A program made the translations under genes and the position numbers. A DNA stretch of 64,000 nucleotides from assembly GCA_964458795.1 (NCBI GenBank), contig CAYWJW010000001.1, forward strand, positions 14,083 through 78,082, in the 5' to 3' direction. The DNA comes from an uncultured Candidatus Jidaibacter sp. GTDB taxonomy: Bacteria > Pseudomonadota > Alphaproteobacteria > Rickettsiales > Midichloriaceae. The notes under the pieces were generated by a model. It saw only the letters and a program-made list of their open reading frames with translations, was not told the DNA's origin and did not search any database. Shown piece after piece: positions 6,817-11,059 of the stretch. Each line of letters begins with the position of its first letter. The stretch's first letter is position 1.

Positions 6817-8061
6817 ATGAACAGAACACCAAGAATTAGCAGTTTACACTCTCGAACAATACTGGATAGCAGAGGTAACCCAACTGTAGAAGTTGATATA
6901 ACTTTAGAGGATGGATCTTTTGCCAGAGCTTCTGTACCAAGTGGTGCATCGGTGGGAAGTAAAGAAGCACTCGAGCTTCGTGATGAAGATAGCAAATTTC
7001 ATGGTAAAGGTGTTGAGAAGGCAGTTAACAATGTAAATAATGCTATTGCCGGCAAGCTATTAAACAGAAGCTTTGCTCTACAAGCAGAGCTAGATAATTT
7101 GCTTATAGAACTTGATGGCACTGAAAATAAAAGCAACTTAGGTGCCAATGCTATTTTGGGTGTCTCTATAGCTTTTGCCAAAGCATCAGCACTAAGTTTA
7201 GGGCAACCGCTTTATAGCTATCTTGGTTCCGGGCGAAAACTACCTGTGCCATTTTTTAATGTTATAAATGGTGGAGCGCATGCGGATAATGCTCTTGATA
7301 TACAGGAGTTTATGATAGTGCCTTTTGGATTATCTAATTTTGCGGAGATGGTAAGAGCTGGCAGTGAAATTTTTCATACGCTTAAAAAACTGCTCAGGCA
7401 AAAAAAGTTGAGCACCAATGTTGGAGACGAAGGAGGCTTTGCGCCGAACTTAAGTAGCGCAAAAAACACCCTAGATGTTATTTGTGAGGCTATATCAGAG
7501 GCTGGATATATGCCTGGCACGCAAGTCGCAATTGCGCTTGATGTTGCAGCAAGTGAGTTCTTCGAAGGTGGTAAATATAACTTAAGCGGAGAAGGATTGA
7601 TTATGGATTCACATGGTTTAAGCCATTACTTACAAGAGCTATGTGCACATTATCCAATAATCTCAATAGAGGACCCAATGCATGAGAGCGATTATGAAGG
7701 ATGGAAATTGGTTACTAAGCTCATGGGGAAAGATATACAGATTATCGGCGATGATGTTTTTGTGACCAACCCTAAACTAATAGAGTTTGGTATTGAACAA
7801 GGTTTTGCTAATTCTGTGCTCATCAAGCCAAACCAGATTGGAACTATTACCGAAACAATCCAGGCAATCAACATCGCTAAAATGGGAGGTTATAAAACCA
7901 TGATCTCACATCGTTCTGGCGAAACTGAAGATACCACTATCGCACATCTAGCAGTAGCCCTAGAAAGCGGACAAATAAAATCCGGCTCCCTTTCCAGAAC
8001 CGATCGTTTGTGTAAATATAACGAGCTTTTGAGGATAGAGGAATCTCTTAATAAACAATAA
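6817..8061 (+). CDS. eno: Enolase (phosphopyruvate hydratase)
   Basis: [57 protein letters not shown] and [12 protein letters not shown]. Confidence 0.95.
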
Positions 8062-8130
8062 GATCCCCCTTGCGGTCATAATGAACAATGATATATTTGC
8101 TGCAGAAATGTTAAGATTTATAGGTAAAAT

Positions 8131-8190
8131 ATGTCAGAACAAAATAAATTCAAAGGCGGCGATAAGTTTAAATACATGCAATATCACTGA
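8131..8190 (+). pseudogene. In-frame deletion remnant (19 codons) of the 330-aa gene found intact at 9230-10222
   Basis: MSEQNKFKGGDKFKYMQYH* joins the N-terminus (MSGQDKFKGGDKFK) and the C-terminus (YMQYH*) of the downstream copy. The flanking leader 8042-8130 duplicates 9142-9229. Confidence 0.8.
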
Positions 8191-8198
8191 GGTATTCT

Positions 8199-9047
8199 AT
8201 GAGAATCATTTGCTTAATATTAATGCTGCTTGGGGGATTCCCTTCATTTCTTAATGCTAAAGCACCTAAATTCCCGCCATATCCGGATATTTGGGGGTAT
8301 GATTTGATGGAAGACTTTAACCAAGATATTAATATGCGATTGAGTGAAAGTCTTATGAAGAATGGAGACTATTTGCTTCGATATCCAAGCACCAAAACTC
8401 CTGGTAATGACAAGACGGACTATACCTTCCTCTTTTACTTTGAACAAAAGAAGAAAGCTTTCAAGGGAATTGAAGAGGCAATGAAATATTTCGATACATT
8501 AGGCTTTGAACCGGGTGAAGGAATTAAGCCTTATATTATCTTAAAAGATAAGACAAAGGATAAAAAAATAATCGACATTAATCAGAATCCTGCCGTGCTT
8601 ATAAAGTATCATCAGATGAATAGTATGCATGAAAATTATATACGCAGACTAGATGATTTTAATAGTGATAAGCCTAGCGATTATGAAGTATCTCCAATTG
8701 GAATTGCCACACATTGCGATGCAAAACAGGTTTGTATCAACTGGGCGTATTCAATGGCTAGGAGAATTATTAAGCTAGAAGATGATACTTTTTTCGTCTT
8801 TAACCCTCGCTACTACCTTTTCTTGAGGTTTGACCGAAATTTTAAAACCAAGTTCAAACCTCAGCACACAGTTAAGCTTAGTGGTGGTCGAGAGCTAAAA
8901 AGCAACTTCTATATCTTGCCTTATGCAAAAGTTGAATACTTTTTCGATCATGTGGCAACAGGTTATAAAGGTGATTATACAGAAGATATCAACCGCCAGT
9001 TCTTAGACTACCTTTATAATGAAGAGCAGTCGAGCTCAGGAGCTTAA
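8199..9047 (+). CDS. Secreted protein of unknown function (paralog of 10232-11059)
   Basis: It has a signal peptide (MRIICLILMLLGGFPSFLNA). The N-terminal ~40 aa and the C-terminal ~130 aa are near-identical to the paralog, and the centre is diverged. Confidence 0.7.
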   Translation: MRIICLILMLLGGFPSFLNAKAPKFPPYPDIWGYDLMEDFNQDINMRLSESLMKNGDYLLRYPSTKTPGNDKTDYTFLFYFEQKKKAFKGIEEAMKYFDTLGFEPGEGIKPYIILKDKTKDKKIIDINQNPAVLIKYHQMNSMHENYIRRLDDFNSDKPSDYEVSPIGIATHCDAKQVCINWAYSMARRIIKLEDDTFFVFNPRYYLFLRFDRNFKTKFKPQHTVKLSGGRELKSNFYILPYAKVEYFFDHVATGYKGDYTEDINRQFLDYLYNEEQSSSGA

Positions 9048-9053
9048 AACCCT

Positions 9054-9081
9054 GTCACTCCGGACTTGATCCGGAGTCCAT
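9054..9081 (+). repeat. GTCA-hairpin-TCCAT element
   Basis: gtcaCTCCGGActtgaTCCGGAGtccat forms a 7-bp stem and belongs to the same family as 35718, 56621, 56740, 63082 and ~63198. Confidence 0.7.
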
Positions 9082-9229
9082 CTATAAACAATAGATGCCT
9101 TTAACTTTTTGTATTTAGATCTAAAACTCACCTTTTACATAAATCTCTTAATAAACAATAAGATCCCCCTTGTGGTCATAATAAACAATGATATATTTAT
9201 TGCGGAAATATTAAGATTAAAGGTAAGAG

Positions 9230-10222
9230 ATGTCAGGACAAGATAAATTCAAAGGCGGCGATAAGTTCAAAGGAATTTACGAGGGTTATCATCAGGTAAT
9301 GATGAAGAATGAGCTAAGAAAAGGTATAGGTGGTTATGAACTTAGTTGGGCAGGAACGCCAAAGAGTGGTCCGTCGTTTGGAGGTAATCAGATTGATATT
9401 GCGCATCATGCTAAAGGAAGAGTTATATTTATGGATATAATAAGAAATGCCACTAACGAAGATGGAAGCAATATATTGTCAGTAGATGAGATTTCAAAGA
9501 TCCAACAGATTGTTAATCATAAAGATAAGATGATAGGTGTTCCTATTGATAGACTGTTTGCAGGAGTTCAAGATAAAATTGATAGTGCGTTACAAAGTTC
9601 TTATGGCAAGCGAATAATCCATAAAACTTATGTAAATGAAATTTTAGCAAAAGCGCGGGGTATTGAAAGATTTATAGATGACTTGAAAGAAGGACCTGGT
9701 AAAAATTTCGCAAAGTCAGAAATTGGTAAGCTTTGTATCTTTGATTTCATGAACCAGTATTACATAGGAAGAGATGGTCCCTTACAAACTTTCCTTAATG
9801 GAGATAAGTATACTTTAAAATCAGGAAAAGTTCTTGGCCCTATTACCAAGCCAGATTTTGGTTTTGAAGATTTCAAAAAAGATTTTCTCTTTAATTTAAA
9901 ATATTATCAGGCTAGGCCCGATGATGTTACTAGGAGGCTTAAAAATATAGACCAATACATAAAGAAGAAAGCGACTGAGGCCATTGATAAAAGTGATGAT
10001 GGTAATGAAAATGGAAACAGCATGTGCGATTGTATAGAATTTTTCAATATTTCAAAAACATGTGTTAACACTCCATGGGCTCTGGCTTCATTAGGTCCCA
10101 AAAAAGAAGAATATCGTGAATTGATTGAAAAATCTTATGCACGCTATAGTGGCCAAAATGCTTATGAAATTTGTAAAGAGTTGCATGATATGGATTTTGA
10201 ATCCTACATGCAATATCATTAA
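9230..10222 (+). CDS. Hypothetical cytoplasmic-type protein (no signal peptide), first gene of the duplicated cassette
   Basis: 330-aa ORF, 9 nt upstream of the secreted-protein gene. There is only a weak ES...GGNQ resemblance to lytic-transglycosylase motifs (unverified). Confidence 0.6.
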   Translation: MSGQDKFKGGDKFKGIYEGYHQVMMKNELRKGIGGYELSWAGTPKSGPSFGGNQIDIAHHAKGRVIFMDIIRNATNEDGSNILSVDEISKIQQIVNHKDKMIGVPIDRLFAGVQDKIDSALQSSYGKRIIHKTYVNEILAKARGIERFIDDLKEGPGKNFAKSEIGKLCIFDFMNQYYIGRDGPLQTFLNGDKYTLKSGKVLGPITKPDFGFEDFKKDFLFNLKYYQARPDDVTRRLKNIDQYIKKKATEAIDKSDDGNENGNSMCDCIEFFNISKTCVNTPWALASLGPKKEEYRELIEKSYARYSGQNAYEICKELHDMDFESYMQYH

Positions 10223-10231
10223 GGTTGCTTT

Positions 10232-11059
10232 ATGAAAATCATCTGTTTGATAGTTATATTGCTTGGGGGATTCCCTTCATTTCTTAATGCTAAAGCACCT
10301 AAATTCCCGCCCTACCCTGATATTTGGGGCTATGATTTGATGGAAGACTTTAACCAAGCCAGCACTCTAGGTTTAGATGTATATTTGTTAAAGAATGGAG
10401 ACTATTCATTACAATATCCAAGTACTAAAACGCCTGGCAACGATAAAACGGATTACACAATTCTCTTATACTTTGAACAAAAAAAGAAAGCTTTCAAGGG
10501 AATTGAAGAGGCAATGAAATATTTCGATACATTGGGTTTTGAATATAGTGAGCGTCTAAGACCTTATATAGTTTTAAAAGATGGTAAAGTAATTGATCTT
10601 AGCGCCAAAACTGCTGTGACAAATAAATATAATTTCTCGAATAGTTTGCATCATCATTATGTTCGTAGAATGGATGATTACGGTAAGCCTAGTGATTATG
10701 AGGTATCTCCAATTGGGATTGCCACACATTATGATGCAAAACAAGTTTGCACTAATTGGGCATATTCAATGGTGAGAAGAATCATTAAGCTTGAAGATGA
10801 TACTTTCTTCGTCTTTAACCCTCGCTATTACCTTTTCTTGAGGTTTGACCGAGATTTTAAAACCAAGTTCAAACCTCAGCACACAGTTAAGCTTAGTGGT
10901 GGTCGAGAGCTAAAAAGCAACTTCTATATCTTGCCTTATGCAAAAGTTGAATACTTTTTCGATCATGTGGCAACAGGTTATAAAGGTGATTATACAGAAG
11001 ATATCAACCGCCAGTTCTTAGACTACCTTTATAATGAAGAGCAGAAAGGAAATAATTAA
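10232..11059 (+). CDS. Secreted protein of unknown function (paralog of 8199-9047)
   Basis: It has a signal peptide (MKIICLIVILLGGFPSFLNA) and shares the C-terminal block ...FFVFNPRYYLFLRFDR..FKTKFKPQHTVKLSGGRELKSNFYILPYAKVEYFFDHVATGYKGDY. Confidence 0.7.
   Translation: MKIICLIVILLGGFPSFLNAKAPKFPPYPDIWGYDLMEDFNQASTLGLDVYLLKNGDYSLQYPSTKTPGNDKTDYTILLYFEQKKKAFKGIEEAMKYFDTLGFEYSERLRPYIVLKDGKVIDLSAKTAVTNKYNFSNSLHHHYVRRMDDYGKPSDYEVSPIGIATHYDAKQVCTNWAYSMVRRIIKLEDDTFFVFNPRYYLFLRFDRDFKTKFKPQHTVKLSGGRELKSNFYILPYAKVEYFFDHVATGYKGDYTEDINRQFLDYLYNEEQKGNN

Follow-up and report, generated by a model that had tools for sequence, protein, structure and literature searches.

A candidate toxin-immunity cassette duplicated in tandem behind an enolase gene, with the toxin-like gene deleted from one copy

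Introduction

What does a pair of genes do, if a genome has copied the pair in tandem and apparently discarded most of the first gene from one copy while the second stayed intact? The question is raised by a cassette located directly behind eno, the enolase gene, in a 64-kb stretch of bacterial DNA (hereafter the window, to which all positions refer and whose contig is possibly metagenome-derived). The cassette consists of a gene for a 330-aa protein devoid of a signal peptide and a closely following gene for an exported protein, here called SP, which occurs in two versions (SP1 and SP2). A preliminary description of this locus had likened it to effector/immunity pairs. The comparative evidence collected here makes a toxin-immunity-type module the likely identity of the cassette. 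As the best overall explanation, held with less assurance yet still probable, we propose that the 330-aa protein carries a head acting in the periplasm and that SP would be its exported protector.

Results

The cassette was duplicated in place and copy 1 lost the body of its first gene

Self-alignment of the region, performed by global alignment and with a repeat finder, revealed that copy 1 (8042-9029) is collinear with 9142-11044 at 83-95% identity, save for one clean in-frame gap of 933 bp. The features thus delimited are as follows.

6817-8061, plus strand: eno (enolase, 414 aa; Pfam Enolase_N and Enolase_C; NCBIfam TIGR01060, E 2.5e-183)
8062-8130, plus strand: leader of copy 1, with its counterpart at 9162-9229 in copy 2 (leaders 89-92% identical)
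8131-8190, plus strand: relic of the toxin-like gene, 19 codons (MSEQNKFKGGDKFKYMQYH and a stop), in which codons 1-14 are joined in frame to codons 326-330 of the intact gene; tblastn match of P0001 residues 1-21
8199-9047, plus strand: SP1, 282 aa, orphan copy of the exported partner, with the signal peptide MRIICLILMLLGGFPSFLNA followed by K
9030-9141, plus strand: filler at the duplication junction, unique in the window
9142-9229, plus strand: eno-tail relic of copy 2 (9142-9161, an exact repeat of the 3' end of eno) and leader
9230-10222, plus strand: intact toxin-like gene, 330 aa, no signal peptide
10232-11059, plus strand: SP2, 275 aa, beginning 9 nt past the stop of the 330-aa gene, with the signal peptide MKIICLIVILLGGFPSFLNA followed by K

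The alignment proceeds in blocks. Positions 8042-8116 match 9142-9216 (92%) and 8118-8172 match 9217-9271 (89%); past the jump, 8173-8192 match 10205-10224 (90%), and the remainder (8193-9029 with 10226-11044) is a mosaic of 73-95% identity. Repeats this long and this identical lie far beyond chance. Copy 1 therefore lacks 9272-10204, that is, 933 bp or 311 codons, and stays in frame. The left edge of the duplicated unit is formed by the last 20 nt of eno (8042-8061, with the stop codon at 8059-8061), and this tail, AATCTCTTAATAAACAATAA, is found again without a mismatch at 9142-9161, which shows that the duplication occurred with the cassette already behind eno. The preliminary description had read the locus in just this manner, as a segment starting at 8042 repeated in place from 9142, with 8042-8190 collinear with the ends of 9142-10222, the first gene cut in frame to 19 codons at the cost of about 930 bp, and an orphan second copy of gene 2; alignment and open reading frames (ORFs) bear out each of these points, and its coordinates are all correct.

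The right end of the duplication is less clean. Beyond 9029/11044, with five codons left before the SP stop, the copies are no longer similar, so that the C-terminus of SP1 (SSSGA) is novel, whereas SP2 retains the family-typical KGNN. Downstream, the filler contains two adjacent hairpins, at 9057-9077 (8-bp stem) and 9079-9097 (7-bp stem), and a U-rich stretch comes after them; the energy of the fold is -18.2 kcal/mol (z -4.4). The region of the second hairpin (9073-9093) is 76% like the eno-tail motif. The hairpins may serve as a terminator between units, or else 9073-9093 may be the relic of an older junction.

The 19-codon relic retains both the start and the stop codon of the gene, and its stop overlaps the Shine-Dalgarno sequence of SP1. 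The same overlap between the SP Shine-Dalgarno sequence and the stop of the preceding ORF exists in both copies (CACTGAGGTATTCTATG and CATTAAGGTTGCTTTATG). An in-frame deletion would thus keep translational coupling, although a third of all random deletions would be in frame anyway. No microhomology at the deletion breakpoints was obvious on reading the sequence. A promoter scan returned no plus-strand candidate in either leader, with a total count not above the shuffled expectation, and the leader of copy 1 has no similarity to the non-coding DNA of the other loci described below.

The doublet could also be an assembly artefact, in which two strain variants, with and without the toxin-like gene, were stitched head to tail via their shared eno-tail sequence. 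Positions 8042-8072 and 9142-9172 do share an exact run of 31 nt that could loop a de Bruijn graph, and the source may be a metagenome-assembled genome (MAG), as the relatives are. However, copies that are ~90% identical share few k-mers, the stitching would call for 112 nt of unique filler attached to the eno tail (9030-9161), a sequence that must exist in real DNA, and a tandem or paired arrangement of the same families is found independently in another pair of assemblies (L006/L007). We regard this origin as highly improbable.

The two genes are linked across loci

The same pair recurs in related genomes. Genes for the N-terminal domain of the 330-aa protein (N-domain, residues 1 to ~250) and for SP lie next to each other in the same orientation in 13 further loci that differ in sequence, some of them assemblies of a single site. 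Either gene may come first, SP identity falls as low as ~27%, and the family membership of each partner was verified with hidden Markov models built from the two alignments; L004/L005, L006/L007 and L012/L013 are same-site assemblies, and L019 is near-identical to L020. The toxin-like gene comes first in L001 (330 and 269 aa), L004/L005 (422 and 270 aa) and L006/L007 (508 and 273 aa, with a second pair upstream), as well as in L003, where it is split into 89- and 218-aa parts that precede SP beside an IS240-family transposase gene. SP comes first in L002 (268 and 333 aa) and, among the distant members of ~27% identity, in L009 (300 and 474 aa), L011 (304 and 412 aa) and L012/L013 (298 and 324 aa). 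L011 is Jidaibacter acanthamoeba, whose pair lies directly after VirB8/VirB9. A metagenome scan with the motif SGxSFGGNQ contributed three more pairs in the SP-first order (L020, L021 and L025), likewise distant members of ~27% identity, and a single genome, GCA_029266655.1, carries three or more divergent pairs. The occurrence of both orders looks like a tandem array of units sampled at different phases.

Homologs of the 330-aa protein and of SP (24 for the latter) come only from Midichloriaceae/Jidaibacter-type assemblies and unnamed metagenomes, and the window is on this ground almost certainly derived from a bacterium of this type. The Midichloriaceae belong to the Rickettsiales and are mostly protist symbionts.

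Several of these loci have features of their own. In the Midichloriaceae MAG GCA_029266655.1 (JAQSWL010000007.1; L001, 4316-10705), the pair, together with thiamine pyrophosphokinase and acetyltransferase genes, splits the bc1 cluster between the Rieske/cytochrome b and cytochrome c1 genes, with VirB3, VirB4 and VirB6-like genes just upstream. In L003 (6355-9101), a WGR-domain fragment adjoins the split toxin-like gene and the SP gene is cut by the contig end. The two toxin-SP pairs of L006/L007 (1-1860 and 4374-6822) lie ~5 kb apart, and the SP copy of the first (1044-1859), called as fragments, is possibly a pseudogene. In L009 (824-3978), an SP gene precedes a toxin-like gene with LysM on a 39.8-kb contig that has ParA, ParB and Rep3-type genes ~2 kb upstream, which suggests a plasmid-borne copy.

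The N-domain is widespread and conserved like an enzyme

A search of 1.84 billion cluster representatives (50% clustering) with a profile built from seven close homologs identified 330 representatives of the N-domain at E <= 1e-3, 208 of them at E <= 1e-10. The domain begins within the first 30 residues in 148 of the 154 proteins examined. The proteins range from 75 to 4147 aa, and the 330 representatives derive almost all from uncultured bacteria. Only one in a set of 93 has an N-terminal hydrophobic segment (signal calls on N-domain and SP proteins are heuristic and were not made with SignalP). Further modules of these relatives include RTX repeats, S8 peptidase, PG_binding_1, M23, LysM, ankyrin and leucine-rich repeats (LRR). 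In the toxin-like homologs of L006/L007 and L004, N-terminal extensions of 85-170 residues precede the domain, unlike in most of the family.

Over the 93 diverse sequences, E28, Q54, D56 and N175 are conserved in 100%, S46, G47, G51 and Q176 in 99%, R236 in 98%, D172 in 97% and S49 in 96%, with Thr at position 49 in a few members. The core motif is h-MM-x-NEL-x-x-G-x-GAY-x-[LI]-S-x-A-(4-10)-SG-x-[ST]FG-x-x-Q-x-D. This pattern of invariant residues indicates that the N-domain is an enzyme. Residues 251-330, a C-terminal helical region with the motif CKELYGMDF, are conserved solely in the Midichloriaceae group.

Neither protein had been assigned to a recognisable family in the preliminary description, and Pfam and NCBIfam scans of the 330-aa protein and SP likewise gave nothing above noise, toxin-antitoxin families included. 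No recurrent family emerged when 33 N-domain members were compared with Pfam at E up to 10; PADLOC yielded no match, PHROG matches were confined to the LysM and PG-binding parts of relatives, and relatives of the N-domain numbered 0 among 2.9 million viral contigs. Sequence searches of the PDB with three toxin profiles (A1, A3 and A4) and the SP profile (A2) returned chance matches only. A genome-collection scan with the A1 profile, a poor pattern, recovered 2 loci, and name look-ups on 20 relatives met almost no annotation. The preliminary description had also pointed to a weak 'ES...GGNQ' similarity of the 330-aa protein to lytic-transglycosylase motifs. It had picked the right stretch, since SG-x-SFGGNQ-x-D is the invariant core, and the wrong acid: the conserved one is E28 of the NEL motif, while the proposed Glu ('YELS') is Lys in some homologs, and no profile links the family to lytic transglycosylases or T4 lysozyme.

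The exported partner is interchangeable and outlives the toxin-like gene

We then considered N-domain loci that lack an SP homolog and have enough flanking sequence (L015, L022/L024, L026-L031, L036, L037, L038 and L039). In every case the N-domain gene is preceded, at no more than ~140 nt, by another short ORF (133-220 aa) whose product has a Sec or lipoprotein signal, and these replacement partners fall into at least five groups unlinked by BLAST. A putative enzyme that stays conserved while its exported partners are exchanged is what characterises periplasm-acting toxins and their immunity proteins and, as read from sequence comparison, provides our strongest argument for the nature of the cassette.

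Toxin-like genes are also lost while the partner stays. In L008 (5727-5900; JGI 3300045996, Ga0456371_00000947), the intact solo SP gene P0019 is immediately preceded by the remains of an N-domain gene, an independent relic built like that of the window although it belongs to a different genome and locus. There, the ribosome-binding site (RBS) and first seven codons (MRSPKIN), 95% identical to those of the L006 gene, are joined out of frame to the last ~32 codons (...DCKELYGRD...GWKLW and stop), with ~1.4 kb missing. Taken with the window and the split gene of L003, loss of the toxin-like gene with retention of the candidate immunity gene appears to be recurrent. The proposed resemblance to effector/immunity systems is therefore sustained, as an interpretation, by the adjacency of the two genes, the always-exported partner, the wall-binding and secretion modules of relatives, and the L008 relic.

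In three metagenomic loci, arrays of RTX proteins follow the same layout. L036 (274-10114), L037 (401-7685) and L038 (2449-9752) contain series of pairs, each made of a small signal-peptide ORF and an RTX protein, the latter including M23-RTX-cadherin-S8, lipase-like (GHSLGG; L037) and metalloprotease-like (HEMTH) proteins. The N-domain gene of L036 is situated near a type I secretion ABC/HlyD pair and beside an M23-RTX-S8 protein, whose M23 domain, a known peptidoglycan peptidase, occupies the same N-terminal slot. These arrays look like islands of type I-secreted toxins and their immunity proteins; to our knowledge, RTX proteins that have a small exported immunity gene of their own have not been described as a class.

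These observations bear on the alternative that the 330-aa protein is a host-directed effector, injected into an amoeba or another eukaryotic host, with SP as a co-secreted factor or an unrelated surface protein. Injection into the host is usual for Rickettsiales type IV substrates, and this alternative would agree with the concentration of the family in lineages of intracellular symbionts (Midichloriaceae, Jidaibacter and Berkiellales), with the ankyrin or LRR repeats of some relatives and with the location of three loci within a few kb of virB genes. Nevertheless, a neighbour that is always exported yet belongs to several unrelated families fits periplasmic immunity rather than a fixed co-factor, the LysM, PG_binding_1 and M23 fusions and the M23-RTX arrays point to bacterial cell walls, and toxin-like genes are lost with the partner retained. 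A host-directed role is, in our judgement, quite unlikely.

SP1 and SP2 are mosaic paralogs under purifying selection

SP1 and SP2 are 80% identical. Of the SP family members called, 20 of 22 have a hydrophobic N-terminal segment, and all 22 do after two mis-called starts are corrected. One of the homologs, K0R73_282 (P0013; L001, 9020-9080), has a deposited start that is apparently mis-called, and the upstream in-frame start gives a normal signal peptide (MKIIHIMFLVMLFFAEHSEA); similarly, the database entry for SP1 of the window (P0009, 274 aa) begins at an internal Met. The ratio of nonsynonymous to synonymous substitutions (dN/dS) between SP1 and SP2 is 0.08-0.17 in every segment, so that both copies, the orphan included, are still under purifying selection.

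The preliminary description had placed the divergence of the two paralogs in a single central stretch of ~100 residues. The alignment instead assigns the variation to residues 43-55 and to residues 104-152, two patches with a conserved block (56-103) of 92% identity between them. Identity between SP1 and SP2 is 31% and 44% in these patches, no closer than that of either to homologs in other genomes (15-58%), and in the second patch each of them is closer to P0010 of L002 than to the other. Conversely, the framework of the two is 92-100% identical mutually versus 45-86% to other homologs. Synonymous divergence amounts to 0.27-0.45 at the conserved ends and 1.2-1.8 in the centre, the values in the variable patches being inflated by poor alignment. 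The mosaic is thus, as far as these comparisons go, not just the product of fast amino-acid evolution: either gene conversion would have homogenised the framework of old paralogs, or a patch would have been imported by recombination. The variable patches would be natural candidates for specificity-determining surfaces, SP2 is a candidate cognate immunity protein and SP1 a candidate orphan one.

A lysozyme-like activity is the leading candidate for the N-domain

The AlphaFold2 (AF2) model of the 330-aa protein (predicted local distance difference test, pLDDT, 78.7; predicted TM-score, pTM, 0.64) shows a helix that spans residues 16-30 and has E28 close to its end, then short strands around 39, 49-50 and 55-56, and finally a helical lobe. 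S/T49 and D56 reside on the strands that follow the E28 helix, a region modelled at pLDDT 53-84. The lysozyme superfamily is recognised by an invariant Glu near the end of a helix and a subsequent hairpin that bears [ST]-x-G and an acidic residue, exemplified by E11, D20 and T26 of T4 lysozyme and by E22, D40 and T45 of the glycoside hydrolase family GH46 chitosanase. In both libraries searched with Foldseek (PDB and BFVD), the matches of highest probability, all sub-significant, are cell-wall or chitosan hydrolases of this superfamily or endolysins, with TM-scores among the highest. They include the following.

Chitosanase 4ily: E 1.3, probability 0.41, TMt 0.36
T4 lysozyme 3cdo: TMt 0.32
4nso, the VgrG3 C-domain of an effector-immunity complex: E 7.5, TM 0.29/0.42 (TMt 0.42)
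Pesticin-T4L 4epi: among the matches of highest probability
'PlyB like endolysin': E 0.53, probability 0.60, TMq 0.35
Phage PaBG endolysin: probability 0.35, TMq 0.33

With the superfamily-like layout of Glu and hairpin, the peptidoglycan-binding modules of relatives and the M23 neighbour in L036 added to these weak structural matches, lysozyme-like attack on peptidoglycan becomes the leading candidate activity, one that we put forward tentatively and with a little short of even confidence. Membership of GH23 or GH24 was not assigned, as hhalign and Pfam comparisons were negative (for SLT, the GH23 domain, 0 of 33 members matched even at E up to 10) and the 'YELS' Glu is not conserved.

The missing link to any glycosidase, whether by fold or by profile at a significant level, would fit a periplasm-acting toxin with another target, such as a membrane lipid, lipid II or a lipoprotein; the toxin-immunity logic would then be kept and the lysozyme interpretation would be wrong. 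Residues G47-P-S49-F-G51 formally conform to the GxSxG nucleophile elbow of lipases and esterases, and the RTX proteins neighbouring the N-domain gene of L037 include the lipase-like one. We judged a serine hydrolase less likely, however, because several members have Thr at 49, His is invariant nowhere and the model is mostly helical, unlike an alpha/beta-hydrolase. The accessory domains of relatives, moreover, bind peptidoglycan, and the highest-probability structural matches are all lysozyme-like. A target other than peptidoglycan seems unlikely to us.

Delivery and the case against the proposal

Genes of the virB type (virB3/B4/B6, virB6-like and virB8/B9) occur near the pair in L001, L002 and L011, that is, in three of ~9 independent loci of the Midichloriaceae group. 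On this small sample, and by a rough estimate, such proximity exceeds expectation if vir clusters fill a few per cent of the genome. It could also mean that the 330-aa protein is a housekeeping, machine-associated autolysin, VirB1-like, which opens the wall for assembly of the secretion system under a periplasmic regulator. This is scarcely probable: the presumed enzyme has no signal peptide, several divergent copies may share a genome (GCA_029266655.1 has at least three pairs), the genomic position changes from locus to locus, the closest relative has no cassette, pseudogenes and relics exist, the domain is fused to RTX elsewhere and the window has no vir genes. Delivery of the proposed toxin by a type IV secretion system (T4SS) is in itself rather improbable.

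The Rickettsiales vir-homolog (rvh) T4SS has been proposed to have been used for killing other bacteria, and maybe to be so used still (PMC11077975). A lysozyme-like type IV effector of Xanthomonas that has no signal peptide enters the periplasm of its own producer, which an immunity protein guards against self-intoxication (PMC10933484). Self-intoxication of this kind would explain the need for an immunity gene whatever the export route.

A number of results weigh against the proposed explanation as a whole. Foldseek produced no match at E <= 0.001, either for the two models against PDB or for the toxin model against BFVD, and the best matches of the latter model have E 1.3 (PDB) and 0.53 (BFVD), with probability <=0.6 and TM-score <=0.42. 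Alignment with hhalign of the family profile to goose lysozyme (probability 0.9%) and T4 lysozyme, the two lysozyme sequences having been entered by hand, was negative, and even profiles of 33 and 22 sequences gave no link to Pfam or to PDB sequences. No known lysozyme inhibitor matched the SP model significantly. Ankyrin or LRR repeats, a typical feature of host-directed effectors, are present in some relatives. Finally, tblastn with VirB3, B4, B6, B8 and B9 of related loci found no virB homologs in the 64-kb window, Pfam scans of ten neighbouring genes in the window disclosed no protein-secretion gene, and the virB linkage is limited to the three other loci, within 8 kb.

The cassette sits among housekeeping genes

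According to Pfam, the neighbours of the cassette are housekeeping genes. The flanking features are these.

Upstream of the exonuclease gene: two outer-membrane beta-barrel proteins, then cydBA (Pfam)
5875-6717: PolB-type 3'-5' exonuclease gene, exo (Pfam)
11063-11111 (no strand; hairpin 11065-11111): hairpin between SP2 and the convergent ATPase gene, 14-bp stem, -22.2 kcal/mol, z -6.6, repeat family D8
11111-13750: mgtA-like P-type ATPase gene, convergent with SP2 (Pfam)
Beyond the ATPase gene: HlyD/MFS efflux pair, recR and others

The G+C content of the cassette is 33-36%, versus 38-42% in the flanks. In the closest relative (L016, whose exonuclease is 78% identical), cydBA-exo-eno is present with no cassette behind eno, and a more distant relative (L018) has no eno at the corresponding place. 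The cassette is hence a lineage-specific addition, or else it was lost in the relative. Its contexts in other genomes are unrelated to one another, which indicates mobility. We rejected the idea of a mobile cassette with conserved ends, given that the non-coding DNA is dissimilar between loci and the filler hairpin is unique in the window.

A perfect direct repeat of 29 nt, TTATACCAATTCCAGTAAATAACTGTACA, at 6696-6724 and 11063-11091 (4367 nt apart) brackets eno and both cassettes. The first copy takes the place of the stop native to the exonuclease gene, which it lengthens by 7 codons (YTNSSK and a stop), where relatives end in ...KIAA and a stop; the second contains the left arm of the hairpin listed above. 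The repeat is not present in the closest relative despite its adjacency of exo and eno, and could be the scar of a rearrangement or else a site of recombination. The idea that it arouses, namely that eno and the cassettes were inserted as a single block, was discarded, as exo-eno exists without the cassette in that relative.

Discussion

The analysis shows the anatomy of the locus, the linkage of the two genes, their export signals, the distribution and fusions of the domain, repeated loss of the toxin-like gene and purifying selection on SP1 and SP2. From sequence, context and models we infer toxicity, a peptidoglycan target, neutralisation by binding and a secretion route for this system, and the resulting proposal can be stated as a mechanism. 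The product of gene 1 would be made in the cytoplasm without a Sec signal, and its first ~250 residues would form an enzymatic head directed at the cell envelope from within the periplasm; its most likely target would be peptidoglycan, cleaved in the manner of a lysozyme-type glycosidase. E28 would act as the acid, and the hairpin SG-x-[ST]FG-x-x-Q-x-D would supply the water-positioning Ser/Thr49 and the base D56. The last ~80 residues are taken to direct export, perhaps through the rvh type IV system, because they are specific to the Midichloriaceae and because RTX modules, which denote type I secretion, fill that C-terminal part in distant relatives. The product of gene 2 (275 or 282 aa) would be sent by Sec to the periplasm, where it would bind and block the toxin and shield the producer from leaked or incoming molecules. 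As to history, a cassette behind eno would have been duplicated in tandem, from the last 20 nt of eno to just before the SP stop, and the 933-bp in-frame deletion would then have stripped the toxin body from copy 1. With the start, the stop and the coupled RBS left in place, SP1 may still be expressed as an orphan immunity gene.

Should this hold, the window offers a snapshot of cassette evolution, with tandem duplication, removal of a toxin that spares the expression signals of its immunity gene, and mosaic immunity genes whose framework is homogenised while two patches differ as much as between genomes. If confirmed, the interbacterial weapons would gain a toxin domain that is fairly widespread, has so far gone unannotated and is served by at least six families of partners (SP and the five others), and ~330 clusters of 'hypothetical protein' could receive a provisional family assignment. 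A broader claim, that of a new family of cell-wall-degrading toxins that plugs into RTX/type I secretion in free-living bacteria or, via the Midichloriaceae tail, into the rvh type IV system, we deem doubtful. The pairs are nonetheless concrete candidates with which to test bacterial killing by the rvh T4SS in the protist-symbiont Midichloriaceae. Were the broader claim true, obligate intracellular Rickettsiales symbionts of protists would still fight bacteria with their T4SS, and toxin relics beside surviving immunity genes would bear witness to this arms race.

The kind of system is known, including effector-immunity pairs, orphan immunity genes and tandem amplification, and it is the two families and the 250-residue domain that are new to the libraries searched. 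The cassette does not conform to type II toxin-antitoxin systems, in which the antitoxin is cytoplasmic, since SP has a signal peptide. Nor do the PADLOC, PHROG and viral-contig results place it in anti-phage defence or phage lysis.

Within the Rickettsiales, cREM-5/cREM-5p of Rickettsia is likewise a two-gene module with the partner immediately downstream. It has no detectable domains, lies in variable, mobile genomic regions and is reported, with its partner, only from Rickettsia and Tisiphia, with no similarity to other Rickettsiales proteins (PMC11077975). Compared by description only, the two modules are probably unrelated.

The lysozyme superfamily (GH24, GH46, GH23 and lytic transglycosylases) shares with the N-domain model the predicted helix with Glu, the hairpin with [ST]-x-G and an acid, and the helical lobe. 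It differs in that no sequence, profile or structure match is significant and in that the spacing of the N-domain and its Q-x-D and D-x-x-N-Q motifs fit no curated family. Among the pairs found in type VI secretion systems (T6SS), Tse3/Tsi3 and the VgrG3 C-terminal domain with TsiV3 combine a periplasm-acting lysozyme-like toxin with an adjacent exported immunity gene, as predicted here, and orphan immunity genes are common in such systems. The VgrG3 domain (4nso) is one of the highest-TM weak matches to the 330-aa model, though not significant, and no T6SS-type genes were noticed in the loci examined, without a search aimed at them. RTX type I substrates with an N-terminal enzymatic head offer a further parallel, in that distant N-domain members are such proteins and one of them lies near ABC/HlyD beside M23-RTX-S8; the 330-aa protein of the window, by contrast, has no RTX repeats (no HemolysinCabind match).

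A parallel in layout is that of X-Tfe/X-Tfi (for example XAC2609/XAC2610), of the bactericidal T4SS of Xanthomonadales. The 330-aa protein differs from X-Tfe in lacking a detectable GH19 or other known catalytic family, SP differs from X-Tfi in carrying a Sec-type signal rather than a lipobox, the host is here a member of the Rickettsiales with an rvh-type T4SS, and relatives of the 330-aa protein use RTX/type I modules instead. XAC2610, Tsi1 and PliI share a beta-propeller-type topology (PMC10933484). The AF2 model of SP (pLDDT 87.6) is predicted to be beta-rich, and its weak Foldseek matches in the PDB are to beta-propellers only, which we take as a resemblance and not as a test. In overall design the two pairs run in parallel: X-Tfe, an effector without a signal peptide, joins an N-terminal cell-wall-hydrolase head (GH19) to a C-terminal secretion-targeting domain, and X-Tfi is encoded beside it and directed to the periplasm, as SP is predicted to be.

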